A stretch of 52,651 bases of DNA from an uncultured Zetaproteobacteria bacterium (GTDB lineage Bacteria; Pseudomonadota; Zetaproteobacteria; Mariprofundales; Mariprofundaceae), in NCBI GenBank assembly GCA_964505835.1, contig CAZDJY010000001.1, positions 1-52,651 of the forward strand. Reading direction: 5' to 3'. Within the stretch, counting starts at the first letter, position 1. Every line of letters begins with the position of its first letter. The notes under the pieces were generated by a model. That model did not search any database. It saw nothing but the letters and a program-made list of their open reading frames with translations, and had not been told where the DNA came from. Both the position numbers and the translations under genes were made by a program. Positions 14,072-51,756 of the stretch are shown piece after piece.

Positions 14072-14172
14072 GCCCCGGATTGTCGCAGCGGATGCAGGTG
14101 GCGCAAGGGGCGGGTGTTTCATCCTCTTTTCATGCAGGCAAGTCTAACATGGCGTGTGAATCTGGAGGTTTT

Positions 14173-14805
14173 ATGCAGCGAATTTCTGTCAATCACTGGC
14201 TTTTGAACTGCTTCGGCTCTGCCCTGATTATGATGATGGTGGCGCCCTCGGGAGCTGCCGCAACGACGGAAAAAACCGCTGTGGCCACCTTCGCCGGCGG
14301 ATGTTTTTGGTGCATGGAACATCCATTCGATGCATTGAAGGGCGTGCTTTCAACGACCTCGGGTTATACCGGCGGGGATAAGGCTGATCCGACCTATCAT
14401 GAGGTGTCGGCCGGCAGTACCGGACATGCCGAATCGGTGCAGGTACTCTACGACCCGGCGTTGGTCAGTTACGAAAAACTGCTTGAAGTGTATTGGCATA
14501 ATGTCGATCCGACGACGCCCAACCGCCAGTTCTGCGATGTGGGTACGCAATACCGTCCGGCCATCTTTTATCACGATGAACAGCAGAAGGCTTTGGCCGA
14601 GGCTTCCCGGGATCGATTGCAGAAAGAGAAAAAATTTGACGGTAATATTGTCGTTGAAATTACACCTGCATCGACCTTCTATGCGGCCGAGGATTATCAT
14701 CAGGATTATTATCTAAAGAATCCGATCCGCTACAAATTCTATCGATACAACTGCGGTCGCGATCAACGCTTGCGCCAGTTGTGGGGCGAGGTGGAACATG
14801 AATAG
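14173..14805 (+). CDS. msrA: Peptide-methionine (S)-S-oxide reductase, exported form
   Basis: Active site GGCFWCME preceded by a cleavable-looking Sec signal (LIMMMVAPSGAAA). GGAGG lies 4 nt before ATG 14173. Confidence 0.9.
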   Translation: MQRISVNHWLLNCFGSALIMMMVAPSGAAATTEKTAVATFAGGCFWCMEHPFDALKGVLSTTSGYTGGDKADPTYHEVSAGSTGHAESVQVLYDPALVSYEKLLEVYWHNVDPTTPNRQFCDVGTQYRPAIFYHDEQQKALAEASRDRLQKEKKFDGNIVVEITPASTFYAAEDYHQDYYLKNPIRYKFYRYNCGRDQRLRQLWGEVEHE

Positions 14806-15295
14806 ACGTCAGTTTATCCAGCTATCGGCGCTGGCAGGCATTTCGGCAGCTGTCGCACCGTTCATCAGGTCGGCATGGGCCGATCATACAGGAGGCCGCG
14901 GCATGATTGAAAAAATCGAGAAATCGGATGAAGAATGGCGCCAGTTGTTGAGTCCGGAGGCATTCGATGTGTTGCGTCGCGAGGGCACTGAGCGGCCACA
15001 TAGCAGTCCTTTAAACAAGGTCTATGACGAGGGCACTTATGTCTGTGCCGGATGCGACCTGCCCTTGTTTACCTCGGCGACGAAATTCGACAGCGGTACC
15101 GGATGGCCGAGCTTTTTTGCTCCGATTGAGGGGCATACTGAAACGAAGCGCGACTTCAAGATGATCTTGCCGCGCACCGAATATCACTGCGCTCGCTGCG
15201 GTGGTCACCAAGGGCATGTGTTTGAGGATGGCCCGAAGCCGACCGGCCAGCGCTGGTGTAATAATGGCGTGGCGTTGAAGTTCATTCCGGCCTGA
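14798..15295 (+). CDS. msrB: Peptide-methionine (R)-S-oxide reductase with a twin-arginine signal
   Basis: Tat-type N-terminus MNRRQFIQLSALAGISAAVAPFIRSAWA. Zinc CxxC pairs (CAGCD, CARCG) and the catalytic region RWCNNG. Overlaps the msrA 3' end by 8 nt. Confidence 0.9.
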   Translation: MNRRQFIQLSALAGISAAVAPFIRSAWADHTGGRGMIEKIEKSDEEWRQLLSPEAFDVLRREGTERPHSSPLNKVYDEGTYVCAGCDLPLFTSATKFDSGTGWPSFFAPIEGHTETKRDFKMILPRTEYHCARCGGHQGHVFEDGPKPTGQRWCNNGVALKFIPA

Positions 15296-15330: not shown

Positions 15331-15963
15331 TTAGGGCTTGTTCCTGTTTTTCTTCCGGTTGCGCGGTTTTCTTTGTGCCCGTTTTGTCTTTGCTCTGGCA
15401 TTTTTTCCGGCCTTGCGTGTCCTTTTTTTGTTCACTTTCTTACGGCTCTGCTTTTTGTTCTGTTTACGGGTTTTCGGCTTGGGCGAGGGTTTGTTGGATG
15501 CAACAGGCGTAGTCCGGGGCACTGGCTTTGTCTGAGGTTCCGGGTTGATGGCAGGCATGACAGGTGTTGCCAGCGGTGGCTGGCCGAAGCTCGGCAGACT
15601 ATAGACCCGGTCAGGGTGGGTCTTGGCGTACAAGGTCAGGGTTGAGCCGTCATTGCTGTAAAACCAGTCGCCTGCTTCCTCGGCGTGAGTCATCACCGGA
15701 TGGGAAGCGGTCCACGGGTCGTTGGGGATACTGCGGATGAGGCCGGCTCCGACCAGTTCATCAAGCATACCCGATGCAGGGCTGTATTCCTTCTGGATGC
15801 TGTAATCACGCAGCGCCTGGAATAGTTCGATTTCGCCGGCCAGTAGTTTCGCCTGATTCAGGTAGGTGTGATAGGACGGTATCGAGGTGGCAGCCAGTGT
15901 GCCTATGATGCCGACGCTTATCATTAATTCGATCAGGGTGAAGCCACGATAGTTGCGCATCAT
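15331..15963 (-). CDS. Prepilin-type (GspG-like pseudopilin) protein with a Pro-rich linker and a 53-aa polybasic C-terminal tail
   Basis: Class III signal MMRNYRG|FTLIELM (Gly-1, Phe+1, Glu+5). The globular part has GspG-like IPNDPW. The tail KPSPKPKTRKQNKKQSRKKVNKKRTRKAGKNARAKTKRAQRKPRNRKKNRNKP has 28 of 53 residues K/R and no acidic residue. Confidence 0.8.
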   Translation of the reverse strand: MMRNYRGFTLIELMISVGIIGTLAATSIPSYHTYLNQAKLLAGEIELFQALRDYSIQKEYSPASGMLDELVGAGLIRSIPNDPWTASHPVMTHAEEAGDWFYSNDGSTLTLYAKTHPDRVYSLPSFGQPPLATPVMPAINPEPQTKPVPRTTPVASNKPSPKPKTRKQNKKQSRKKVNKKRTRKAGKNARAKTKRAQRKPRNRKKNRNKP

Positions 15964-16625
15964 AGATATTCCATATGGGCCGGTTTTCGCGGCTCGGCAA
16001 GCAGCGAGCGCAGGCCGTAGGCCTCGGGATGCGGGCAGATAATGCGTAAGCCCTTGTCGGCATCGTAAACGATTAGAAAATCACTGTGCGTAACCGGATC
16101 CTGGAGTTGCTCGCGCGAGTCCATCATGATCGCCAGATCATCCATATCGGCCGGCGGGTGGCCTAGCTGGCTGGTAAAGTAGGCGGCCTGAAAGGCTGCA
16201 AACTCAAGACGGTGCCGGCAGTTGATCAGTTGTGACAATTGAGTGGAGAGAGCGGGTTCGGATGCAGGCCCGCTATCGGGCGAATAGCGCAGAAGGATAT
16301 AGCCGTTGGTGCCCAGGATCGCGAGCAACACAAGGGCCAGTGCTGAACGCACGACCCGTTTGATACGGCGCTGGCGTTGCAAGGAAAGCTTGCGTTTTTC
16401 CCTGTGGGCGTTGGCGCAGTTGCTGCATACGGTGTGTTCTCCGTTCTCCTTGCCGACACAATCCTCGCCGAATGGTTTGCGGCATAGCTGGCAGTAAAAA
16501 GTGGCGATTTCTTCGGCGTGATTGGTGCAGTAGATATAGGTTGTGCTGTGGCCGGTCTTGACTGTGAACGGGCGCCGGCGTTGGGCCGCTTCTGTTTGCT
16601 TTGCATTACCGTTTGTCTGCTTCAT
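15960..16625 (-). CDS. Membrane protein with an N-terminal B-box/zinc-ribbon-like Cys/His cluster
   Basis: CTNHAEEIATFYCQLCRKPFGEDCVGKENGEHTVCSNC, then a basic stretch, one TM (ALALVLLAILGTNGYILL) and a ~110-aa extracytoplasmic domain. GAGGT lies 4 nt before ATG 16625. The stop overlaps the pilin ATG (ATGA). Confidence 0.5.
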   Translation of the reverse strand: MKQTNGNAKQTEAAQRRRPFTVKTGHSTTYIYCTNHAEEIATFYCQLCRKPFGEDCVGKENGEHTVCSNCANAHREKRKLSLQRQRRIKRVVRSALALVLLAILGTNGYILLRYSPDSGPASEPALSTQLSQLINCRHRLEFAAFQAAYFTSQLGHPPADMDDLAIMMDSREQLQDPVTHSDFLIVYDADKGLRIICPHPEAYGLRSLLAEPRKPAHMEYL

Positions 16626-16700
16626 GCCGACCTCGCGCCATTTCCCCACCGTATTTCCCTCTATCAATTATCGGTCGAATGGGCTGCAACTTTAGCCGGA

Positions 16701-16734
16701 ATAAAAACGGCGACCCGGAATGGGGCCGCCGTTT
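16701..16734 (-). terminator. Intrinsic terminator downstream of the DUF481 gene
   Basis: The minus strand reads AAACGGCGGCCCC-ATTCC-GGGTCGCCGTTT followed by TTAT, which continues the stem's terminal T-run. Confidence 0.7.
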
Positions 16735-16753
16735 AATGTGAAACAGTTGAACT

Positions 16754-16810: not shown

Positions 16811-17533
16811 TTAGAAATTCACCACCAGTGTGATGGCAGTTTCGGTGTCCAGTTTCTTGGTACCAGTCGGCACCTTGCTGTTATGTGTAAGGCTTAAGGA
16901 AATTTTACTCGACAGATGAGAGTTCAGCGCCGTCTGCAATGCGGTGACGGATTTGCTGGTCCAGCCCTTGGCGCCGCCCTCGGTACTCAAATCTTCTGTA
17001 AGCTTGGATGATTCACTGAACTGCCAGGCGGCATTCGTGGAGGCGCGGGCAATCGCCTCTGAGGTTGATGTTTTGTCGGTCAGCTTGCTTTGACGCAGAC
17101 CGCCGCCGATCTCAGCCTTCCATTCAAAGGTATCGCTCTTGATCAGTTGCCGACCATAACCGACGGTTTCGCTGGTGCGACGCTTGAATCCGGCAAAGCG
17201 GTCGCTTTCGAAGCCGAAGCGGATGAACAGATAATCCCGCTCACTCATCTTCCAGTCTTCCTGCAGGCTGGCCTCATATTTTTCTGCCGTTGTCGCATTA
17301 TTGGCTGAAGAGTTAACGGCATTACCGGTGATGGTGGTGCGCCATGCCTCACTTTCATAAATACTCTTGGCCTTTGCGTTGACGGTCAGCGTATGCGTGT
17401 TGCCTGCAGTCTGTACGGCGCCGAGCTCGATATTGGTTTTCCATGCCTGTTCCTCGCCAGCAGGTGCTTCAGAAGCGAAAACCGGTGCGCTCAGGGCGCA
17501 AGTGCAGAGCAGGGTAATGATGAATCGGAACAT
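16811..17533 (-). CDS. DUF481 (YdiY-like) outer-membrane beta-barrel protein
   Basis: Signal peptide MFRFIITLLCTCALSAPVFA, alternating beta-strand pattern and a C-terminal ...TLVVNF. AAGGAG lies 6 nt before ATG 17533. Confidence 0.75.
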   Translation of the reverse strand: MFRFIITLLCTCALSAPVFASEAPAGEEQAWKTNIELGAVQTAGNTHTLTVNAKAKSIYESEAWRTTITGNAVNSSANNATTAEKYEASLQEDWKMSERDYLFIRFGFESDRFAGFKRRTSETVGYGRQLIKSDTFEWKAEIGGGLRQSKLTDKTSTSEAIARASTNAAWQFSESSKLTEDLSTEGGAKGWTSKSVTALQTALNSHLSSKISLSLTHNSKVPTGTKKLDTETAITLVVNF

Positions 17534-17722
17534 TGTGAACTCCTTGGTTTGAATTGGTGGGGCATGATAGGAAGGCTTGGACTGAAGGCCAGTGAAAAAT
17601 ATCACTATGACGAGTGCTCCATTGCGCTGGGCGTAATCAATGCCCCTGGACGTGCGCAATTCGATCTATACTTGCAAAGGCGGCGCGTGAGAATAGAGCC
17701 TGACCTAAGCAGGAGGTGTTTC

Positions 17723-18064
17723 ATGCATAATGTTTCAAGACGACGGATTTCTCTACTCATGCTTGCTCCTGCGGCAGCGCTGATGTTGTTAATGGCAGCG
17801 CCGGCACAGGCTGATGAGGCCGAGCTTTCAGGTTTCGATGCCAATCATGATGGCAAGATCACCATGTCCGAGGTGATGCGCCATATCCGCCCGGCTATCC
17901 AGAGTGGCTTTGATGCGATGGATCGCAATCACGACGGTGTATTGTCCAAGGATGATTTTAACGATGTCAGCGAGGGCATGCACAAGTTTCAGCAGTGGCT
18001 CGATGAACTGCTCAGGCCGTTTATGTCATCAACCGATCGCGAGGGAAAAACGCAGGAGTTCTAG
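17723..18064 (+). CDS. Exported EF-hand calcium-binding protein
   Basis: Signal peptide ending AQA|DE and two EF-hand loops (DANHDGKITMSE, DRNHDGVLSKDD). AGGAGG lies 6 nt before ATG 17723. Confidence 0.75.
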   Translation: MHNVSRRRISLLMLAPAAALMLLMAAPAQADEAELSGFDANHDGKITMSEVMRHIRPAIQSGFDAMDRNHDGVLSKDDFNDVSEGMHKFQQWLDELLRPFMSSTDREGKTQEF

Positions 18065-41712: not shown

Positions 41713-42639
41713 TTGGCAGGCTTTGACAGTTCTTCTTCTAACCTCTACGCTAAGCAAAGCGTGAGGATACAGGGAACGACAAAGTTGTATGGCATTGTGG
41801 GCTGGCCGGTCACACATTCGCTGTCTCCGATGTTCCAATCCCTGTTTCTTCAGCAACGCGGACTGGATGCTGCGTATCTGCCCTTCGGGGTAACACCCGA
41901 GTTTCTTCAGCAGGCCATGGATGGGCTGTGGGCGTTGGGTGTGGAGGGATTTAATGTGACTGTACCCCACAAGGAAGCGGTCTTTAATCGTGTCACTTGC
42001 GATGATGATGCCCGCCTGATTGGTGCGGTGAATACCGTTAGGCGCGCTACAGATGGCTGGCAGGCTACGAATACGGACTGGCTTGGATTTCAGGCAGTCA
42101 TTGACGGCTTGGGCGTGCAATTACAGAAACGCAAGGCGTTGTTGTTCGGCGCCGGCGGCACGGCCCGGGCTATATTGCATGCGTTATCCTTCAAGAACCT
42201 TGAGACGCTGTATATCTGTAACCGCAACCCCGAGCGTTTGCAGGCGTTTATCGGTTTTGCTGAGCAGAACTACCCATCAATGAATTGTCAGACAGTGGCC
42301 TGGCAGCAGGAAAAAGTCACGCAGGCTTGTGTCGATGCGGCCTTGCTGGTTAATGCGACCAGTATCGGTTTGAACAAGGCAGATAGCTTTCCCTTCAGTC
42401 TTGCTGGATCAGGGGTATGCGTGGATGCTGTATATAGCCCGAGCGGGAAAACGGCGTTTACCCGGGCTTCAACGGGACTATGCGTGGACGGATTGCCCAT
42501 GTTGATTGCTCAGGGTGCCGAGTCCTTCGCCTGGTGGCACGATGGGAAGAAGCCGGATCGCGTAGCTGCACTCTGCTGGATGGAATCCCATTTGGGACGC
42601 CGGAACACGGCATTGCCGGGCTGGGAGGGCATGGTATGA
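41713..42639 (+). CDS. aroE: Shikimate dehydrogenase
   Basis: LYGIVGWPVTHSLSPMFQ, NVTVPHK and GAGGTARA. Start uncertain (TTG 41713 or GTG 41761). Confidence 0.85.
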   Translation: MAGFDSSSSNLYAKQSVRIQGTTKLYGIVGWPVTHSLSPMFQSLFLQQRGLDAAYLPFGVTPEFLQQAMDGLWALGVEGFNVTVPHKEAVFNRVTCDDDARLIGAVNTVRRATDGWQATNTDWLGFQAVIDGLGVQLQKRKALLFGAGGTARAILHALSFKNLETLYICNRNPERLQAFIGFAEQNYPSMNCQTVAWQQEKVTQACVDAALLVNATSIGLNKADSFPFSLAGSGVCVDAVYSPSGKTAFTRASTGLCVDGLPMLIAQGAESFAWWHDGKKPDRVAALCWMESHLGRRNTALPGWEGMV

Positions 42640-44333
42640 AGCAGACCCGTCTGGGAGATATCCTGCTGCGGCAGCAGAAGATTACGCGCGAACAGCTGGA
42701 TAATGTTATTCGCGAGGCCAAATTGCATGGCGACAGCCTGACTGCACAACTGGTGAAGCAGAGTATTTTCACCGAAGAAAAACTGGTGAAATTTGTTGCC
42801 AAGTCATTTGGCCGACCGGCGATTGATTTGGATAAACTCGAAATAGAACCCAATCTGGCCAAGATATCGCATGATGTGATGCGCAAGAATCTGGTGCTGC
42901 CGGTGCGGCGAAAGGGCAATGTGCTGACCCTGGCGGTGGCTGACCCATATGATATCAACAGTCTGGATGAGGTGGCTTTCATCAGTGGTTGTCAGGTGGA
43001 TGTGGTTATTGTTGCCGAATCGCAGTTGATCGCCCGTCTCGATGAGGATGTCGCTAATGAAGGGCATCTTGAAGATGTGATGGCCGATCTTGGCGCGGAT
43101 AATATGGAGGTGGTTGATACCTCTGAGGAAGATCTGGACGAGCATAGCCTGTCGGCTGAAACTGAGGCGGCGCCGGTCGTTAAGCTGGTGAATCTGATTC
43201 TACTCGATGCGATCAAGCGCGGCGCATCGGATATTCATCTTGAGCCCTACGAAAAGGTTTTGCGTGTACGTTACCGTATTGATGGCGTTCTGCACGAAAT
43301 TATGCGGCCGCCGATGAAGATGAAGGACGCCCTTGTGTCGCGCCTTAAAATCTTGGCCCGGCTTGATATTTCGGAGCGTCGAGTGCCTCAGGACGGGCGT
43401 ATCAAGTTGCGCTTGTCGAAGGCTAAAACGGTGGATTTTCGAGTCTCGGTATTGCCGACCTTGTTTGGCGAAAAGGTGGTGATGCGTTTGCTGGATCCTT
43501 CCAGTCTGCAGCTTGATATGACCAAGCTCGGTTATGAGGAGCAATCGTTAAAATGGCTACAGGAGGCGATTCACAAGCCGTACGGAATGGTGCTGGTCAC
43601 CGGGCCGACCGGTTCAGGTAAGACGGTGAGTTTATATTCCGCCGTGTCTGAGCTGAACCAGCCGGGCGTGAATATCTCCACCGCCGAGGATCCTGTCGAG
43701 TTTAACTTTATGGGCATTAACCAGGTGAATGTGCACCCTGAAATAGGGCTGGATTTTCCGGCAACTTTGCGCTCATTCCTGCGTCAGGATCCCGACATTA
43801 TCCTGATTGGTGAAATCCGCGATTATGATACGGCAGCCATCGGTATCAAGGCTGCTTTGACCGGCCATATGGTGCTGGCTACATTGCATACCAATGATGC
43901 TCCCTCGACGATGAGCCGCCTGATCAACATGGGCGTCGAATCCTTTCTGGTCGGCTCGGCCGTTAATATGGTGTCGGCGCAACGACTGGCACGGCGTATC
44001 TGCTCAGAATGCAAGACTGAGCTTGAGGTGCCGGCCGAATCGTTGGTGGACGCCGGTGTGCCTGAGGCGGAAGTGGGGTCGTTCAAGCCGATGACCGGCA
44101 AAGGTTGCCCGACCTGTAACGGTACGGGCTATAAGGGGCGGACAGGCATCTATCAGGTGATGCCGATTTTCGATGAGATCCGCGAAGCGGTGTATGCAGG
44201 CAAGAATGCGGATGAAATCAATGCCATTGCAGTCTCGAAGGGTGTGAAGACTTTACGGATGTCGGCATTGGATAAAGTGAAGGCCGGAGAGATTTCCCTT
44301 GAGGAATGTCTCCGCGTAACGGTGACTGACTGA
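42636..44333 (+). CDS. pilB: Type IV pilus assembly ATPase PilB (GspE family)
   Basis: Walker A GPTGSGKT and a tetracysteine motif CSECK...CPTCNGTGY. ATG 42636 lies 6 nt after GGGAGGG and overlaps the aroE stop (ATGA). Confidence 0.9.
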   Translation: MKQTRLGDILLRQQKITREQLDNVIREAKLHGDSLTAQLVKQSIFTEEKLVKFVAKSFGRPAIDLDKLEIEPNLAKISHDVMRKNLVLPVRRKGNVLTLAVADPYDINSLDEVAFISGCQVDVVIVAESQLIARLDEDVANEGHLEDVMADLGADNMEVVDTSEEDLDEHSLSAETEAAPVVKLVNLILLDAIKRGASDIHLEPYEKVLRVRYRIDGVLHEIMRPPMKMKDALVSRLKILARLDISERRVPQDGRIKLRLSKAKTVDFRVSVLPTLFGEKVVMRLLDPSSLQLDMTKLGYEEQSLKWLQEAIHKPYGMVLVTGPTGSGKTVSLYSAVSELNQPGVNISTAEDPVEFNFMGINQVNVHPEIGLDFPATLRSFLRQDPDIILIGEIRDYDTAAIGIKAALTGHMVLATLHTNDAPSTMSRLINMGVESFLVGSAVNMVSAQRLARRICSECKTELEVPAESLVDAGVPEAEVGSFKPMTGKGCPTCNGTGYKGRTGIYQVMPIFDEIREAVYAGKNADEINAIAVSKGVKTLRMSALDKVKAGEISLEECLRVTVTD

Positions 44334-45526
44334 TGGCGATTTTTTTATGGACGGCGAAAACAAGGCAGGGGCAGGAGAAGAGCGGCGATATTGAGCTTGC
44401 CAACCGCGACGTGGCGATTGCAACCCTGCGCCGCCAGGGTCTGGTGGATATCAAGGTCAAGAAGAAGCCGATAGAAATCGAGATCTTTCCGGAAAAGGTT
44501 AACGATAAGGATATCTCGGTCTTTTTCCGGCAGCTATCGACAATGATCAATGCCGGCTTACCTTTGGTGCAATGCTTCGAGCTGGCTGAAAAGGGCGCCG
44601 ATAAAAAAGCCATGGTGACGCTGCTCAAGGATGTCCGGAATGGGCTTGAGGGCGGTAGCCCGTTGGGTGAAACCATGCGTAAATTTCCTAAGGAATTTGA
44701 TCGCTTGACTTGTTCCTTGGTCGAGGCGGGCGAGCAGGGCGGTATTCTGGATACCATTCTTTTGCGTCTGTGTATCTATAAGGAAAAGGCCCTCAGCCTG
44801 AAGGCAAAGATCAAATCGGCCATGGTCTACCCTGTAGCGATCATGGTGGTTGCATTTATCGTCACTGCCATACTGATGATCTTTGTAATTCCTGTTTTTG
44901 CAGAGATGTTTGCTGATTTTGGTGCCGATCTGCCAGGGCCGACCAAGGTGACAATGGCGATATCCGAAGGATTTGTGGAGTACTGGTATTTGGTCGTGTT
45001 TGTGCCGATTGCGGTGGTGTTTGGGATTCGTGCTATTTATCAGACCCCAAAGGGGCGCTATCAACTGGACAAGCTGCTGCTTAACCTACCGGTGCTGGGT
45101 GATGTGTTGCGCAAGGCCTCGGTGGCTCGTTTCTGCCGCACCTTTTCCACCCTTACCGCAGCCGGTGTGCCCATCCTGGAATCGATGGATACGGTAGCCG
45201 AGACATCCGGCAATGTGGTGATTGAAGAGGTCATCATGCAGTCCAAGGAGTCGATATCACAAGGCCAGAATTTGGCTGGCCCGTTGGAGGCCAGTAAGAT
45301 TTTCCCTGTCATGGTCACGCAGATGATTTCTATCGGTGAAGAGACCGGTAGCCTGGAGGATATGCTGGCCAAGATTGCCGATTTTTATGAAGAAGAGGTG
45401 GATACGGCCGTGGATAATATGACGGCTCTGATGGAGCCGTTTATCATGGCTTTCTTGGGTGTCGTCATTGGTGGCCTGGTCATCTCCATGTATCTGCCAA
45501 TCTTCCAGATGGCCTCCGTCGTTTAA
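44333..45526 (+). CDS. pilC: Type IV pilus platform protein PilC (GspF family)
   Basis: Two GspF repeats (FFRQLSTMINAGLPL; FCRTFSTLTAAGVPI) and three TM segments. 1-nt overlap with the pilB stop. Confidence 0.9.
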   Translation: MAIFLWTAKTRQGQEKSGDIELANRDVAIATLRRQGLVDIKVKKKPIEIEIFPEKVNDKDISVFFRQLSTMINAGLPLVQCFELAEKGADKKAMVTLLKDVRNGLEGGSPLGETMRKFPKEFDRLTCSLVEAGEQGGILDTILLRLCIYKEKALSLKAKIKSAMVYPVAIMVVAFIVTAILMIFVIPVFAEMFADFGADLPGPTKVTMAISEGFVEYWYLVVFVPIAVVFGIRAIYQTPKGRYQLDKLLLNLPVLGDVLRKASVARFCRTFSTLTAAGVPILESMDTVAETSGNVVIEEVIMQSKESISQGQNLAGPLEASKIFPVMVTQMISIGEETGSLEDMLAKIADFYEEEVDTAVDNMTALMEPFIMAFLGVVIGGLVISMYLPIFQMASVV

Positions 45527-45586
45527 ATGTTTTTTGCCTGCACCTGAATCTTGCATACGTCAGTTGTGCGTAACCCATAGCATGAC

Positions 45587-47164
45587 GTGCATGGTGGTTC
45601 GGAGAGGGATATTCCTGTGAATTTAATCCTGTATCGCGGGCTGGTCGCTCTGGCCCTGGCGGGACTGATCCTGCTTTGGATGGAGCCTTCGCTCTACCCG
45701 GATGCCGGCCGTGTGATCCGTGTGACTGCGGGTTTGTATTTCGGACTGTTGTTGTTGCAAGGGTTGTTGTACTGGCGCATGTATCTGCCCGAAGCGCCTT
45801 TAATATTGTTCTATTTTGCTTCCGATGTGCTGGCTGCCAGCCTGCTTGTCTACGCCACGGATGGTCTGGCCAGTCCGTTTTCACTCCTGCTCGGCTTGAT
45901 TGTTCTGGCATCAGGTACACTGGGTCGGGTGATGATGCCTGTCATGGTCAGTTTGCTGGCCTGTATGGGTTATCTGGCCGCAGTTTACACCCATGCGGCA
46001 CAGCACGAATTGTTACTGGATGCAGCCGATGCCCTGCATGTACTTCTGCAAGTCTCGGCAATTCTACTCGTTGGCGGTGTGATGGCCTTTATCTCCAGGC
46101 GGCATGCGGGGCTGCGCTCGGCTGGCGATCTGGCTGTTCGGCAGCATCGTAAGCTGAAGGGGTTACACAGTCGTGTGATGTCGGCGATGAGTGAGGGTGT
46201 AATTGTGCTGGATGGGAGGTTGCAACCTTATGAGATGAATGCGGCTGCCAGAGATCTTTTGGCATCAGGCCATCTCAGTGATGCGGCATTGGTCGGACAA
46301 CTTCTTGCTGAGGCTCCCAAGCTTCATCAATGGCTGGCCGAAGAAGGAAATCAGGACTTTCATGCCGAATTCACGCATGGCGAGCTAAGTCTGCTGCTTA
46401 CCGCCAAAGCAATGGGAAGCTCGGCTGCCTCGTTGGATGATCCATCCTGGTTGCTTACGCTGGTCGATATCAGCGATATGCGAAGACTGGAGGGAAAACT
46501 GATCGAGCAGGAAAAGATGGCAGCTCTTGGCCAGATGTCGGCGATGCTGGCGCATGAAATTCGTAATCCGATCCAGACTATGGCGCAGGGCCTGGAACTG
46601 ATGAAGGTGGATATTGAACATCGCCAAACTGTTCAGGATATTCTGCGAGATGAAATGCTGCGCCTTAATCGGCTGGTGAATATGATGCTGGACTATTCAA
46701 AGCCGCTTGAAGTCAGCCCCGCAAGCGTGCAAATGACGGCTGTGATGGAAGCGGGGGTGCAGCAGGCGGATCTGGAGAATCGTTCTATTCATTGGCACTG
46801 CGGGGTGGATGAGTTATACATAGACTCGGATCATTTCCGGCTGGTGCTCGATAATCTGCTATCCAATGCCATGAAGAATCGCTCGCCCGACAGTTCTGTG
46901 GATGTGAGCTTATCCGCTGTTGAAAACGGCTGGCAGCTGCGGGTATGCAACCAGGGTGCCCTGCCGCATGAGATGCGGGGGCACTTGTTTGAACCTTATG
47001 TCAGCGGCAGTGCAAGCGGTGTCGGCTTAGGGCTTTCGACGGTGAAACAGGTGTGTGATGTGAACGACTGGGTTGTCGATGTCGAAGAGCATGGCGATCA
47101 GGTTTGTTTTGTTGTCATGGGTAGGGTTCGGGATGCGGATGAAAAGGAGAGGATGCATGGCTGA
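45587..47164 (+). CDS. pilS: Sensor histidine kinase, PilS-like
   Basis: Six N-terminal TM helices, a PAS-like segment, H box MLAHEIRNPIQ, N box LLSNAMKN and G box GVGLGLS. GTG start at 45587 or 45617. Confidence 0.75.
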   Translation: MHGGSERDIPVNLILYRGLVALALAGLILLWMEPSLYPDAGRVIRVTAGLYFGLLLLQGLLYWRMYLPEAPLILFYFASDVLAASLLVYATDGLASPFSLLLGLIVLASGTLGRVMMPVMVSLLACMGYLAAVYTHAAQHELLLDAADALHVLLQVSAILLVGGVMAFISRRHAGLRSAGDLAVRQHRKLKGLHSRVMSAMSEGVIVLDGRLQPYEMNAAARDLLASGHLSDAALVGQLLAEAPKLHQWLAEEGNQDFHAEFTHGELSLLLTAKAMGSSAASLDDPSWLLTLVDISDMRRLEGKLIEQEKMAALGQMSAMLAHEIRNPIQTMAQGLELMKVDIEHRQTVQDILRDEMLRLNRLVNMMLDYSKPLEVSPASVQMTAVMEAGVQQADLENRSIHWHCGVDELYIDSDHFRLVLDNLLSNAMKNRSPDSSVDVSLSAVENGWQLRVCNQGALPHEMRGHLFEPYVSGSASGVGLGLSTVKQVCDVNDWVVDVEEHGDQVCFVVMGRVRDADEKERMHG

Positions 47165-48521
47165 TGTGTTGTTGGTCGAGGATGAGGCCAATGCTCGCAA
47201 GATTCTGAGTATGGGACTTGAGTTGCAGGGCCATCAGGTCGTGGCTTGCTCGGGGCCGGGCGATGCCGGGGTCGCATTGAAGAAACAGCACTTTGATGTG
47301 GTGCTCACGGATCTGCGCATGGACGGCCGCGATGCCGGTCTGGAGGTTATCAAGACAAGCCGGAGCTTGCAGCCCGATACGCCGGTTATGCTGCTGACTG
47401 CCTTCGCCAGTGCGGAAACTGCCGTGGCTGCGATGAAGGAAGGAGCATACGACTATCTGACCAAGCCGGTTTCCACCGAGGAGCTTGCCGATGCCGTCGA
47501 ACGGGCTTTGCTTGGCTCCAATCCCAAACCAGTCGCGCATAGCAGCAATAAACCGCCGGAGGGCGGAGCGACGCTCCTGATTGGTGAAACCGAATCGATG
47601 CAGCGTGTGCGGGAACGGCTGCAGCGAGCCGCGAAATCCGAATTCACGGTGTTGATTTCCGGCGAGTCGGGTACTGGCAAGGAATTAGCGGCGCGCTATG
47701 TCCATGAACATTCTGGCCGCAAGGAAGCCCCATTCGTCCCGGTACATTGCGGCGCAATTCCGGAGGGCTTGTTTGAATCGGAATTGTTCGGTCATCGCAA
47801 AGGGGCTTTCACAGGTGCTGAGAATGATCGCACCGGTCTGATCGAATCGGCGGACCATGGCACCCTGTTTCTTGATGAAGTCGGGGAGATGCCGTTAACG
47901 GCCCAGGTTAAATTGCTCCGGGCTTTGCAGGAGCGACGTATCCGACGGGTCGGTGATGACAAGGAACATGATGTTGATGTGCGAATTGTTGCAGCTACCA
48001 ACCGTGATCTTGAAGCGGAGGTCAAAAAGGGGCACTTTCGCGAGGATCTGTTTTTCCGCCTCAATGTCGTGCCGGTGCATCTGCCTCCTTTGCGTCAGCG
48101 TCGGGAGGATATTCCTCTGCTTGCCAGAGCCATGATCCGGGAATGGGGGGAAGGTCGGGTCAGGTTGACCGATGCTTGTCTGCAACGCCTGGCTAAGCTG
48201 CCGTTTATGGGCAATGTGCGGGAGCTGGAGAATTTGCTGCAGCGCATGCTGGCTTTGAGCGAGGGAGATGATCTGGATATGGATCTGTTTGACGAGCTGT
48301 ATCCCTCCATTCCAAATGACTCACAGGCTTCACTTGCAACACTGGAAGAGCAGCAAATGGATCTGGATAGCTGGATGGAGGCTCAGGAGCGCCAGCTCAT
48401 CGGTGAGGCGCTGGCTGCCAGCGCGGGTCATATCACCAAGGCTGCCGAAAAACTTGGCATCAGCTTTCGCTCCTTGCGTTATCGCCTGAAAAAGCTCGGT
48501 CTGAACGGGGGCGATGAATGA
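47157..48521 (+). CDS. pilR: Sigma-54-dependent response regulator, PilR-like (NtrC family)
   Basis: Receiver [14 protein letters not shown]+ [14 protein letters not shown] and a C-terminal Fis-type HTH. ATG 47157 follows AAGGAGAGG and overlaps the pilS 3' end by 8 nt. Confidence 0.85.
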
Positions 48522-49300
48522 TTTTGTTCGCCATGGTCTGCGGGCTCTTCGGACTGCTGTTCGGCAGTTTCGCCAATGTATGCGTATACCGCATCCCGAG
48601 AAGGGAGTCCGTCGCATTCCCGGGCAGCCATTGCCCTCGCTGCAATCACGCGATCGACTGGTTTGATAATATCCCGTTATTTTCATGGCTATGGTTGAAG
48701 GGTCGGTGTCGCCATTGCGGGGGAGCTATTGCCTTGCGCTATCCTTTGCTCGAGCTGTTGATGGGTATGAGCTGGGCCTTTCTGGCCTGGCATTTCGGCC
48801 CAAGCCCCCAGTTACTGATGGCATTGGTTCTTTTTTTCCTGCTCTGGGTCCTGAGTGTGATCGATCTGGAGACAGGTCTGTTGCCCAATGCACTGACCTT
48901 TCCCGGCATCGCTATCGGCCTGGCTTTTTCCTGGTGGTTGGGAGATGGCTGGCAGGGATTGCTCGATGCCGGCATCGGGGCATTGGCGGGCTATGGGGTT
49001 TTCTGGCTGGTGGCTCGTGTATTCCTGCTGCTGACCGGACGCGAGGGTATGGGCTACGGTGATTTCAAGCTACTGGCCATGCTGGGGGCTTTCATGGGCT
49101 GGCAGGCGCTGCCGTTTATCGTGTTCGCTTCATCGCTGGTTGGGGCGGTGCTGGGCAGTGTGTTTCTGTTGCTGGCGCGGCGCGGCTTGCGGGCCGAGAT
49201 TCCTTTCGGCCCTTATCTGGCTGTGGCAGGGATGGTCTGGCTGTTGTGGGGCGGGTTGTTGCTTGACTGGTATGCCGGATTGATCGGCTTGGCGCGTTAG
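48518..49300 (+). CDS. pilD: Prepilin peptidase / N-methyltransferase (A24 family)
   Basis: CPRC...CRHC pairs and a catalytic Asp in GMGYGDFKLL. Polytopic. ATGA overlap with pilR. Confidence 0.9.
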   Translation: MILFAMVCGLFGLLFGSFANVCVYRIPRRESVAFPGSHCPRCNHAIDWFDNIPLFSWLWLKGRCRHCGGAIALRYPLLELLMGMSWAFLAWHFGPSPQLLMALVLFFLLWVLSVIDLETGLLPNALTFPGIAIGLAFSWWLGDGWQGLLDAGIGALAGYGVFWLVARVFLLLTGREGMGYGDFKLLAMLGAFMGWQALPFIVFASSLVGAVLGSVFLLLARRGLRAEIPFGPYLAVAGMVWLLWGGLLLDWYAGLIGLAR

Positions 49301-49308
49301 GTGTTTGT

Positions 49309-49923
49309 TTGAGTCAACCGGCCAGAGTCGGCCTGACCGGCGGTATTGGCAGCGGCAAGAGCACCGCCGCTGCGATGTTTTCGGCCTTGGGCGTTCCGGT
49401 GCTCGATCTGGATCAAGTGGGGCGCTCACTGGCCATGCCGGGTTCTCTATGTTTACGTCGTCTGGTCACAGCTTTCGGCGAGGAGATTTTGCGTGCTGAT
49501 GGTTCGCTGAATCGGATGAAACTTGCTTCGCTATGTTTTTCGGATGCCGATAAAACGGCGCGGCTCAATGCCATCATGCATCCGTTGATCAGGCAGGAGG
49601 AGCAGGCATGGCTTAGTTGTCAGCAGGCTGATTTCGCCATTATCGAGGCATCTGTATTGATTGAATCCGGCGGTGCTGAGCGCATGGATGCCGTGATTGC
49701 CATCCTGGCGGAGGAGGGTTTGCGCCGCCGACGTGTGCTGGAACGGGGCCTGCAGGATGCCGAGGGTTTTGAAAGAATCCTCAGTCGCCAGTGCAGTGAT
49801 ACTGAGAGGCGCAGGGTGTCGGATTATATTATCACGAATGACGGTGAGCTGGCTGAGCTTGAGCGTCAGGTAAAGTCAATTTACCGGCAATTGCTTGCGC
49901 GCTTTGCCGCGCCCGAGTCTTGA
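49309..49923 (+). CDS. coaE: Dephospho-CoA kinase
   Basis: P-loop GLTGGIGSGKST. Position after pilD as in the Pseudomonas pilBCD-coaE cluster. TTG start. Confidence 0.9.
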   Translation: MSQPARVGLTGGIGSGKSTAAAMFSALGVPVLDLDQVGRSLAMPGSLCLRRLVTAFGEEILRADGSLNRMKLASLCFSDADKTARLNAIMHPLIRQEEQAWLSCQQADFAIIEASVLIESGGAERMDAVIAILAEEGLRRRRVLERGLQDAEGFERILSRQCSDTERRRVSDYIITNDGELAELERQVKSIYRQLLARFAAPES

Positions 49924-50079: not shown

Positions 50080-51756
50080 ATGTCCGAAACAAACGAATCA
50101 ACCCCAGTCGTGGAAAGTGCCACGCCATCTGCTGATGTAGCAGTTGAAGAAAAACCTCGCCGCAGAGGGCGTCCGCGCAAGGTCCTGGTCGAACAGGCTG
50201 CTGAGGCTCCAACAGCAGACGCTCCTAAGGCAGATTCGCCGGCGGAAGCTTCGGCGAGCGAAGATAAGCCCCGTCGCAGAGGCCGTCCCCGCAAGAGCGA
50301 AAAGGTTGAAGCTGTGCAAGCCGCTGAACCTGCCGCGGATGAGAAGCCTGCCAAGGCCCGCGCCAATCAATCAGCCGAATCCGAGAGCGGAGAAAAGTTC
50401 CAGGGAAATCGCAAGGGTCGCTGGCAGAAGGGCAAGAACAATCGCAAGCGTCGTGATGAACCCGAGGAAAGGATCTCGGACGAGATGGAAGGCGTGACGT
50501 TGAATCTGAAAGAGGTCTCGGCCAAGAGTCCGACCGAGTTGCTCGAGCTTGCCGAAAAATACGAAATTGATAATGCAGCCGGCATGCGCAAGCAGGAACA
50601 GGTATCCGCGATTTTGCGAGCCCACGGACTGCGCGCCGGTACGATTTACAGTGAAGGCGTACTTGAGATTTTGCCGGATGGTTTTGGCTTCCTGCGCTCT
50701 CCTGATGCCAATTATCTTTCCGGGCCGGATGATGTGTATGTTTCTACGCATCAGATTCGCCGTTTTTTCCTGCGCAAGGGCGATACTGTAGCCGGAGAAA
50801 TCCGGGCACCGCGCCGGGGCGAAAAATATTTCGCGTTGAAAACCGTTGATACGACCAATGGTGAGCCACCCGAGGTGGCGCGCACCAAGGTGCTGTTCGA
50901 CAATCTGACGCCGCTTTATCCGAATGAACGCCTGACGATGGAGATTGATAACCCAACGCGCAAGGATATCACGGGCCGCATCATCGATATTGTTTCGCCG
51001 ATCGGCAAAGGCCAGCGCGCCTTGCTGGTCGCACCGCCACGTACCGGCAAGACGGTGATGATGCAGTCGATTGCCCATTCGATCGAAGCCAATCATCCCG
51101 AAGTTGAGCTGATTGTATTATTGATCGATGAGCGCCCTGAGGAAGTGACCGACATGAAACGTTCGGTGAAGGGTGAGGTTGTTTCTTCGACCTTCGATGA
51201 GCCGGCTCAGCGGCATGTACAGGTCTCCGAAATGGTCATCGAAAAGGCCAAACGTCTGGTTGAACATGGCCGTGATGTGGTGATTCTTCTTGATTCGATT
51301 ACCCGTCTGGCGCGTGCCTACAATACGGTGGTTCCTTCATCCGGCAAGATTCTGACCGGTGGTGTGGATGCCAATGCCCTGCATCGTCCAAAGCGTTTCT
51401 TCGGTGCTGCGCGTAATATCGAGGGGGGTGGTTCGTTGACGATTATCGCGACAGCGCTTGTCGAGACCGGCTCCAAGATGGATGAGGTGATCTTTGAGGA
51501 ATTCAAGGGTACCGGCAATATGGAGATCAAGCTGGATCGCAAACTCACCGACAAGCGTGTGTTCCCGTCGATAGATATTGCACCGTCCGGTACGCGTAAG
51601 GAAGAATTGCTGACGCCGCGTGATGATCTGCAGAAGGTGTGGATTCTGCGCAAGATCCTCTCCCCGATGGGTACCATCGATGCGATGGAATTTTTGCTCG
51701 ATAAACTCGGATCGACGAAGAACAATGCTGAATTTTTCGATAAGATGAATCAGTAG
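50080..51756 (+). CDS. rho: Transcription termination factor Rho with a ~135-aa N-terminal extension
   Basis: Canonical Rho starts at about residue 141 ([23 protein letters not shown]...). Walker A APPRTGKT and [10 protein letters not shown]. The extension carries two PRRRGRPRK motifs. GGAG lies 5 nt before ATG 50080. An internal ATG at 50485 would give a canonical-length protein. Confidence 0.9.

Follow-up and report, generated by a model that had tools for sequence, protein, structure and literature searches.

A zetaproteobacterial prepilin family with a conserved acidic module and hypervariable C-terminal extensions

The 52,651-nucleotide stretch of DNA analyzed here (the window; contig CAZDJY010000001.1 of the GenBank assembly GCA_964505835.1, from an uncultured, iron-oxidizing marine zetaproteobacterium of the Mariprofundaceae) encodes a prepilin (15331..15963, minus strand) with a polybasic C-terminal tail, immediately downstream of a gene for a Zn-finger membrane protein, its partner. 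This prepilin belongs to a small, undescribed protein family that is so far confined to Zetaproteobacteria (Mariprofundaceae). The members share a conserved acidic module, followed in all but one by a spacer, often a Pro-rich tandem repeat, and then by a hypervariable, charged, low-complexity tail or an ALTTAQ-repeat domain. Our preferred reading is that the pilin module shows an exchangeable polyelectrolyte tail that would act by its bulk charge. To this model as a whole we assign a probability of about 0.45, the descriptive core being much firmer than the function. The purely polybasic tail of the window protein is an extreme specific to the strain and not conserved: in another strain, the head DNA is 98.5% identical, yet the tail is shorter and its charges are mixed.

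The prepilin gene starts with ATG and encodes 210 residues followed by a stop codon (15331-15333), and its translation is exactly the protein quoted in an earlier reading of this DNA that was made from the letters alone (the sequence-only reading). The class III signal recognized there is borne out by Pfam: the N_methyl model PF07963, the only Pfam model with a match on the protein, covers residues 2-26 at 32.8 bits (cut-off 21.2). The leader MMRNYRG (residues 1-7; 15943..15963, minus strand like all parts of this gene) precedes the hydrophobic stretch FTLIELMISVGIIGTLAATSIPSY, so that the N-terminus reads MMRNYRG/FTLIELMISVGIIGTLAATSIPSY; the cleavage site MMRNYRG/FTLIE has Gly-1, Phe+1 and Glu+5, and PilD is predicted to cut after Gly7. 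The mature pilin module (residues 8-127; 15583..15942), supported by the family alignment, the ratio of nonsynonymous to synonymous substitution rates (dN/dS) and hhalign, comprises alpha1, a hydrophobic helix, and a small head that is acidic (net charge -7), and ends in LPSFG. It is followed by the Pro-rich spacer (residues 128-157, QPPLATPVMPAINPEPQTKPVPRTTPVASN; 15493..15582), recognized by its sequence and the low confidence of its structural model, and by the 53-residue polybasic, low-complexity tail (residues 158-210; 15334..15492), recognized by its composition.

The tail (KPSPKPK...NRNKP) contains 18 K, 10 R, 6 N and no D or E, in agreement with the earlier count of 28 K/R and no acidic residue. 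Across the 38 other proteins of the window (13,324 residues), K and R amount to 10.3% and the richest 53-residue stretch holds 16 of them; the binomial probability of at least 28 K/R in 53 residues is 1.6e-14. The Pro-rich linker that had been noted between head and tail is equally evident on direct reading (SLPSFGQ...VASN, 10 Pro per 36 residues). Together, spacer and tail make up an appendage of 83 residues without a database-defined folded domain: no Pfam domain was found in residues 128-210, and the Pro/Lys segment at residues 128-187 weakly matches the TonB spacer model NF008081 (E = 4.4e-4). The TonB models match over the spacer only, at 20.3 bits with a cut-off of 377, and TonB_C has no match on the window protein. 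Two possible origins of the tail were considered and rejected, namely, a tandem DNA repeat, since Tandem Repeats Finder (minimum score 30) reported no array in the window tail, repeats being obvious in the linkers and tails of relatives, and, for the window contig, a diversity-generating retroelement as the source of the hypervariability, since neither a second nor a template copy of the tail DNA is present within the window.

Translation of the tail had been argued from its open reading frame. This argument is weak: no more than 0-2 stops occur in any of the five alternative frames of the same DNA. The conclusion itself is retained on different evidence: the tail is a translated part of the protein, as supported by syntenic orthologs, which keep in-frame extensions, and by dN/dS along the gene. 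Four loci (L021, L022, L023 and L024) are syntenic with the window, with msrB and msrA convergent after the pilin gene, and all of them keep extensions; L024 is 99.7% identical to the window. Between the window and L021, the closest full ortholog, dN/dS is 0.08 in the head, 0.36 in the linker and 0.56 in the tail; the two genes remain homologous as DNA over most of the tail, without a change of frame, L021 having an internal duplication. In the comparison with L022, the DNA homology ends at nucleotide 399, that is, at the end of the head, and the K/Q/A-rich tail of L022 is unalignable as DNA. In L023, a contig at 1.4x coverage in which a 20-nucleotide deletion fuses the partner and pilin genes, the head DNA is identical to that of the window at 325 of 330 positions (98.5%) and the linker and tail at 201 of 249. 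The L023 tail is 12 residues shorter and of mixed charge (KPEPREQNKKQSSKEVDKKQKDKADKEVKEKERSKKS), with E or D in place of many of the K and N residues of the window protein. Thus, the tail is homologous but fast-diverging in L021 and L023. The deletion in L023 (760-830 of the ENA contig) removes the partner stop codon and the pilin leader, resulting in a 412-residue fusion, P0206, which is either a real allele, one that would abolish PilD processing, or a low-coverage assembly error.

In other lineages, the linkers consist of tandem (TPPVA), (ATPPA) or (TPPTG) units, and their length varies between alleles with near-identical heads. The (ATPPA)n array has about 2 copies in P0008, 8 in L030 and 21 in L037, the (VVTPP)n array has 9 copies in L027 and 6 in L028, and L033 differs from L034 by one TPPTG unit.

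The delineation of the family is based on several searches. A word-indexed search retrieved ten close homologs, all from Zetaproteobacteria or Mariprofundaceae where named. An exhaustive hidden Markov model search among 1.84 billion (1.84e9) representatives yielded about 19 clusters at E<1e-19, beyond which the matches fall off steeply to generic pseudopilins. Among 185,579 species genomes scanned, nine loci were found, all in metagenome-assembled genomes of Zetaproteobacteria / Mariprofundaceae, and a metagenome scan gave thirteen further loci. Longer matches in two stretches (P0062 to P0183) were dismissed as further tailed pilins, being gene-calling artifacts: Arg-rich, out-of-frame-looking fusions of two prepilin genes.

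Among the 27 members compared, 26 carry an extension of 38-316 residues after the conserved LPSFGxPPL motif, always in frame and hydrophilic, so that the orthologs do not end before the linker, the outcome that would have spoken for a recent read-through in this genome. The length and the charge of the extension both vary. The mature head is acidic in 26 of the 27 members (mean net charge -6.5); of the extensions, 20 are basic and 7 are acidic or close to neutral. Basicity is the trend among most members, not a rule of the family. At +29, the window extension is the most basic of all. Other polybasic extensions are those of P0008, P0010 and P0046. Helical-looking Lys/Ala/Gln(Glu) repeats are found in P0003, P0004, P0009, P0044, P0045, P0049, P0051, P0052, L020 and L031; acidic Ser/Asn/Asp-rich or Glu-rich extensions are present in P0011, L008 and L011; and the short charged repeats include KKSPESHKT, ESDKAKKEL, SEDKK, (DK)n and DEQPQQDKLSQH. 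The proposal that the window protein forms a dedicated polycationic fiber akin to histone H1 fares poorly in this comparison: neither the charge nor the sequence of the tail is conserved, as demonstrated by L023, L022 and the acidic members. ALTTAQ repeats (PF20080) were detected in L014 (E = 9.1e-11) and, more weakly and below the cut-off, in P0054 and P0056. In this sub-branch (L013 5962-7266, L014 5983-7317, L016 17-1138, which encodes P0054, and P0056), a C-terminal domain of approximately 250-380 residues replaces the low-complexity tail. In L016/L017, the ALTTAQ-type pilin gene adjoins lipopolysaccharide core genes (Glycos_transf_N, LpxK, Glyco_transf_9).

The head, in contrast to the hypervariable tail, is strongly conserved. 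The entire alpha1 region is invariant across the family alignment, and so are G-1, F+1 and E+5 (G7, F8 and E12), YSP, IPNDPWT, AEE, DW.Y.NDG and HP. The head had been described as GspG-like, and this description stands only in part. In a profile comparison, hhalign aligned the family heads with outgroup pseudopilins, namely, the 43 nearest proteins of about 130 residues, 11 of which are Pfam T2SSG members (best PF08334 match 9.6e-28), with a probability of 99.9% and E of 6e-34 over 110 columns that include the GYxxxIPxDPxT motif. However, PF08334 has no match on the window protein at E<=0.01, and TIGR01710 (GspG) reaches 30.9 bits against a cut-off of 88.85, over residues 6-62, the N-terminal helix, only. 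The NCBIfam models of GspG, PpdD, PilA and ComG cover the alpha1 helix alone and score far below their cut-offs, and TIGR01708 (GspH) matches residues 6-32 only (16.7 bits against 80). Moreover, there is no gsp operon around the prepilin gene in the window or in the related loci examined. Because a profile-level match coexists with failed T2SSG and TIGR01710 cut-offs, the head is GspG-like as a distant, profile-level relative and not as a member of the GspG family.

A sequence search of the PDB recovered N-terminal helices only, except for GspG 5wda, which aligned to profile position 93. The AlphaFold2 (AF2) model, built from an 11-sequence alignment, is of low confidence (mean predicted local distance difference test score, pLDDT, 58), with a helix at residues 10-58 and three strands at 100-124, and with pLDDT below 50 in the spacer of residues 128-157 and below or near 50 over linker and tail as a whole; with this model, Foldseek returned no match at E<=0.001. 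Accordingly, the assignment of a fold to the pilin head was dropped. The acidic motif AEE..DW.Y.NDG is invariant in the head, and the model is too low in confidence to equate it with the GspG calcium site.

The partner gene (15960..16625, minus strand; 221 residues) lies immediately upstream of the pilin gene, and its stop codon overlaps the pilin start by 4 nucleotides (ATGA), an overlap that is preserved in most of the loci checked. The partner combines a cytoplasmic Cys-rich, B-box-like Zn finger (Pfam zf-B_box, E = 7.8e-4, below the cut-off), in which six Cys are invariant, with a single transmembrane helix and an alpha/beta domain on the periplasmic side, in which two Cys are conserved and which ends in PGKPA..Y. 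The AF2 model of residues 125-220 has a pLDDT of 92-95 and consists of a long helix and four strands; Foldseek found nothing significant for it, the best PDB match being TcpA at E = 0.26. We considered the possibility that this domain is a pseudopilin-like head without a prepilin signal and rejected it given this result and a probability of 0.1% in the hhalign comparison with the pilin heads. The partner gene is directly upstream of the pilin gene in almost all loci (L001, L005, L007-L012, L018, L020, L025 and L026-L034). The partner has no family annotation and may be an accessory protein of a new type that handles pilins. At 16700..16735 (minus strand), after the DUF481 gene, direct reading of the sequence reveals a GC-rich hairpin and then a T run, a probable terminator, though not listed by a consensus terminator scan, that probably isolates the partner and pilin genes as a two-gene operon.

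The most common neighbor of this gene pair is an ATPase of 637-761 residues that fuses the MshEN and T2SSE domains and is encoded within about 1 kb in approximately 10 of the 16 distinct partner-containing loci with enough flank. Its gene is usually divergent from the partner gene (L005/L006/L026, L009, L018/L019, L020, L028, L030/L038, L031 and L032); the exceptions are L011, where it lies downstream on the same strand, and L008, where it is convergent. The cyclic di-GMP (c-di-GMP) motif NF053729 is present in each of the three ATPases scanned (L005, L018 and L020), with E from 1e-24 to 4.5e-32. All three miss the equivalog cut-offs of both PilB and GspE, so that the module-adjacent ATPases may form a distinct T2SSE subfamily. 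The L005 ATPase is only 36% identical to the window PilB, which passes TIGR02538. No platform, secretin or minor pilin genes were found beside the ATPases in the loci examined. The three-gene association is not universal because there is no MshEN+T2SSE ATPase near the pilin gene in the window or in the L001 lineage. Several of these ATPases (L005 4499-6739, L018 6605-8827, L020 6538-8823 and L011 5306-7555) have an N-terminal extension of about 190 residues before MshEN, with faint matches, below the cut-off, to PatA_N/DUF4388 (PF14332). In L008 (6700-7551), an HDOD protein is fused in an operon with the neighboring ATPase. In two loci without a long divergent ATPase, the module is flanked by two-component systems, namely, a 7TMR-DISM sensor and a GerE-type response regulator in L001 (8905-11420) and a PAS-HisKA_3 kinase and a GerE-type regulator in L025 (1486-4114).

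Within the window, the pilus machinery is encoded away from the tailed prepilin. A prepilin peptidase had been said to be encoded there, and indeed PilD (260 residues; 48518..49300, plus strand) matches PF06750 (5.7e-36) and PF01478 (1.1e-24). The gene is part of a pilB-pilC-pilS-pilR-pilD-coaE block, about 33 kb from the prepilin gene; the type IVa pilus motor and platform (42480..45526, plus strand), which could assemble the subunit, are encoded by pilB (42480-44333; its product exceeds the equivalog cut-off of TIGR02538) and pilC (44333-45526). According to Pfam scans, which covered 45 proteins of the window, the pilBCSRD block is 27-33 kb distant and the neighbors of the prepilin gene, that is, msrA, msrB, a DUF481 gene and a gene for an EF-hand protein, are housekeeping genes, and on these grounds a pilus or type II secretion system (T2SS) operon around the prepilin gene was rejected. 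The tailed prepilin has the only prepilin-type motif in the entire window, and no competence genes were found next to its gene in the window.

Under the model that we favor, PilD would remove the 7-residue leader, cutting after Gly7, and the pilin module would enter a type IV filament or a short pseudopilus on the PilC/PilQ machinery of the cell, powered by the dedicated c-di-GMP-responsive ATPase where present and otherwise by PilB, with the Zn-finger partner as a putative pilin-specific adaptor. In type IV pilins, Glu+5 is required for assembly and not for cleavage. The invariance of Glu+5 and alpha1, along with the ATPase linkage, argues that the module would polymerize. The tailed subunit is more likely to be a sparse or tip subunit than the sole building block, given that its bulk and its +29 charges per subunit make a homopolymer unlikely; display of the tail along the whole filament, as envisaged in the sequence-only reading, is doubtful on both steric and electrostatic grounds. 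The rigid Pro-rich spacer would keep the disordered tail off the filament, and the tail would work by bulk electrostatics, with no specific motif, as a non-specific polyanion tether and a tuner of surface charge and hydration. Such an action is the most plausible one because no tail motif is conserved and only the bulk hydrophilic, charged and mostly Lys-rich character recurs. The candidate polyanions are acidic stalk or sheath polysaccharide, Fe oxyhydroxide with an organic coat, and extracellular DNA. The tail would be a polycation in the window strain, and the same scaffold would present polyampholyte or polyanionic tails in its relatives. The stalks of Zetaproteobacteria hold acidic polysaccharide, and surface charge is partly behind the avoidance of encrustation (PMC6443915). 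The link of the tail to stalk or sheath polysaccharide and to encrustation is a hypothesis of ours, not a finding. A connection to the published stalk-formation (sfz) cluster was rejected, the sfz pan-genome paper making no mention of a pilin or prepilin.

In a more far-reaching version, which we consider decidedly unlikely, this would be a novel type IV filament module specific to iron-oxidizing Zetaproteobacteria, made up of an MshE-like ATPase gated by c-di-GMP, an adaptor with a Zn finger and a pilin as scaffold, with an adjustable spacer and tail that rapidly retune the interaction of the surface with biominerals of Fe oxyhydroxide and acidic polysaccharide. If so, the module could anchor to or template the stalk or sheath, or else repel mineral encrustation, as a protein "polymer brush" on the pilus.

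Several observations count against a displayed polyelectrolyte tail. Cleavage, assembly and surface exposure of the pilin are predictions from sequence; AF2 modeled the pilin poorly (mean pLDDT 58), and Foldseek gave no significant match. Inspection of the source organism's genome covered the 52.6-kb contig, where no MshEN+T2SSE ATPase is near the pilin gene, the same as in the L001 lineage. A membrane complex of low copy number would account for the 4-nucleotide overlap with a membrane-protein gene no less well than a filament subunit would. The tail dN/dS of 0.56 is equally to be expected of a weakly constrained, nearly neutral appendage. With acidic or near-neutral extensions in 7 of the 27 members, polyanion binding cannot be the common function. 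Furthermore, one member, P0007, is tail-less, its head being immediately followed by a genuine TGA and the DNA beyond being AT-rich, and the ALTTAQ-type loci lack the Zn-finger partner, so that neither the tail nor the partner is essential to the scaffold.

Other explanations of the same data were weighed as well. The overlap with the gene for a bitopic membrane protein, kept in most loci, would also be compatible with a device that never polymerizes: anchored in the inner membrane by alpha1 after cleavage and complexed with the Zn-finger partner, the protein would span the periplasm with a TonB-like spacer and use its tail to contact peptidoglycan, the outer membrane's inner leaflet or an export apparatus, serving as a tether or in signaling. 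The weak match of the Pro/Lys segment to the TonB spacer model, the location of the prepilin gene outside any pilus cluster in the window, and the two-component systems that adjoin the module in L001 and L025 point in the same direction. Nevertheless, we consider this explanation unlikely: Glu+5 and the whole alpha1 region are invariant, the most common neighbor is a T2SSE ATPase of the extension type, and the window protein has no TonB_C or any other envelope-binding domain. The relaxed constraint on the tail invites the view that it is evolutionary noise, a weakly constrained low-complexity read-through without a function of its own, the charge pattern of which arose by drift; the extreme variation of the tails in sequence, length and charge, the natural tail-less member and the nearly open alternative frames all fit. 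Yet, the extension is kept in frame and hydrophilic in 26 of the 27 members, even unalignable tails are likewise charged and of low complexity, 20 of the 27 are basic on an acidic head, and dN/dS in the tail still stays below 1, which makes noise a very unlikely explanation.

The histone-like composition of the window tail, with 28 K/R among 53 residues and no acidic ones, the capture of DNA by positive C-terminal residues of the minor pilin FimT (PMC8897410, PMC12123422), and the presence of type IVa pilus motor genes and PilD in the window are what could be expected if the protein were the major subunit of a homopolymeric polycationic fiber dedicated to DNA binding, like a competence pilus or a histone H1 tail. 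Such a fiber is highly unlikely, as the polybasic state is lost in the strain with 98.5% identical head DNA, the tails of orthologs are K/Q/A-rich, of mixed charge or acidic, the FimT-type GRxR motif is missing and the match to GspH/FimT is confined to the N-terminal helix, and no competence genes are adjacent. In addition, 29 extra positive charges per subunit at an axial spacing of about 1 nm would be expected to oppose polymerization and passage through the secretin, and major pilin genes do not usually overlap a gene for a membrane protein. We give the least credence to the notion that the protein is the major pseudopilin of a T2SS-like endopilus, the tail of which makes contact with secreted cargo such as stalk matrix components. 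GspG-type pseudopilins are indeed relatives of the head, and OutG's extension at the C-terminus has been speculated to capture substrates (bioRxiv 10.64898/2026.04.10.717868), but the T2SSG and TIGR01710 thresholds were failed, no gspC-M, gspD or minor pseudopilin genes adjoin the prepilin gene in any locus examined, and the window contains no other prepilin.

The nearest known systems share only parts of this architecture. Modules grafted onto pilins via linkers are widespread, and a position at the tip has been argued for them (Raynaud et al. 2021, PMC8179133). The family resembles such modular pilins, for example, PilB and PilC of Streptococcus sanguinis (PMC8179133), in having a class III pilin module joined by a linker to a C-terminal part that differs between relatives; the ALTTAQ members L013, L014, P0054 and P0056 fit the definition directly, and the window protein has its Pro-rich spacer after LPSFGxPPL. 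Unlike in modular pilins, however, the appendage in the window consists of an 83-residue stretch of spacer and polybasic tail with no folded database-defined domain, and the tailed family is hypervariable at the strain level and comes with a Zn-finger partner and an ATPase not described for modular pilins. In OutG of Dickeya, a GspG homolog, the C-terminal extension of 12-16 residues is disordered and invisible, on the outside of the pilus resolved by cryo-electron microscopy (bioRxiv 10.64898/2026.04.10.717868); in GspG-type subunits, the C-terminus faces the exterior of the filament. Both have a small head of about 120 residues, in the family a putative alpha/beta one, with a motif of the GY..IP.DP.T type; they also share homology at the profile level and a disordered C-terminal extension that projects from the subunit, as predicted on the side of the family. 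In contrast to GspG and OutG, the window protein is below the T2SSG and TIGR01710 cut-offs and is encoded outside a gsp operon, and its extension is 5-25 times longer, strongly charged and hypervariable.

Positive charge near the pilin C-terminus is also a feature of the DNA-binding minor pilins FimT and ComP, in which it binds a polyanion at the pilus tip (PMC8897410, PMC12123422). FimT, however, folds like GspH, and its short tail carries a few conserved Arg (the GRxR region), whereas the window protein has no GRxR and does not belong to the GspH/FimT fold family, and its charge is located on a long, disordered tail that is not conserved among orthologs. The ATPases of the related loci resemble MshE, the ATPase for the c-di-GMP-controlled extension of MSHA-type pili, in fusing the MshEN c-di-GMP motif to a T2SSE core, but further msh genes are absent, the additional N-terminal segment of about 190 residues is found in several of these ATPases, and none is adjacent in the window. 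The Lys-rich tails of nucleoid proteins, such as the PAKKA repeats of mycobacterial Ku (PMC3553676), and the spacers of TonB are likewise rich in Lys, Arg and Pro and have no predicted stable fold. This resemblance is compositional only: those are cytoplasmic DNA-binding proteins or periplasm-spanning energy transducers with folded domains of their own, whereas the window tail has no repeat unit and the window protein no TonB_C. That no characterized pilin with such a tail was known to the sequence-only reading agrees with the literature: full-text searches on modular pilins, on Lys-rich, disordered or low-complexity pilin tails, and on zetaproteobacterial pilins turned up no description of such a family. 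What is new, then, is a pilin scaffold with exchangeable disordered polyelectrolyte tails, together with a new accessory protein, to which modular pilins, the OutG extension and the C-terminal arginines of FimT come closest.

The diversification of type IV filaments, as known, involves folded modules grafted onto pilins. Long, disordered tails of variable charge on adjustable spacers would add a design principle in which bulk polyelectrolyte properties take the place of a binding domain. Because the family is so far found only in Zetaproteobacteria and is tied to a c-di-GMP-type ATPase, it is a testable candidate for how iron oxidizers attach to their own mineral-polysaccharide structures and keep their surfaces unencrusted. 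For the specific claim made earlier on the window protein, the outcome is sobering, the polycation being an extreme at the strain level.

Some other features of the window deserve mention. The type IVa genes (42480-49923) are in an unusual order, with the pilSR pair inserted between pilC and pilD and aroE upstream; no pilA is found beside pilB in this block, and the window contains no major pilin gene. The msrA and msrB genes (14080-15295) overlap by 8 nucleotides and are convergent with the prepilin gene across a gap of 35 nucleotides, an arrangement kept in L021, L022 and L024. Both products are seemingly exported: a hydrophobic segment is found at the N-terminus of MsrA and a Tat-type signal, though a weak one (PF10518, E = 0.009), in MsrB. 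This suggests a periplasmic methionine-sulfoxide repair pair. Upstream of the two-gene operon (16811-18064), the listed open reading frames for a DUF481 protein (PF04338, E = 1e-54) and for a small EF-hand protein that looks secreted (PF13202) overlap, indicating that at least one start is over-extended. Finally, the Rho factor (50080-51756) has an N-terminal insertion with the second K/R-richest 53-residue stretch of the window, which comprises 16 K/R from residue 25.

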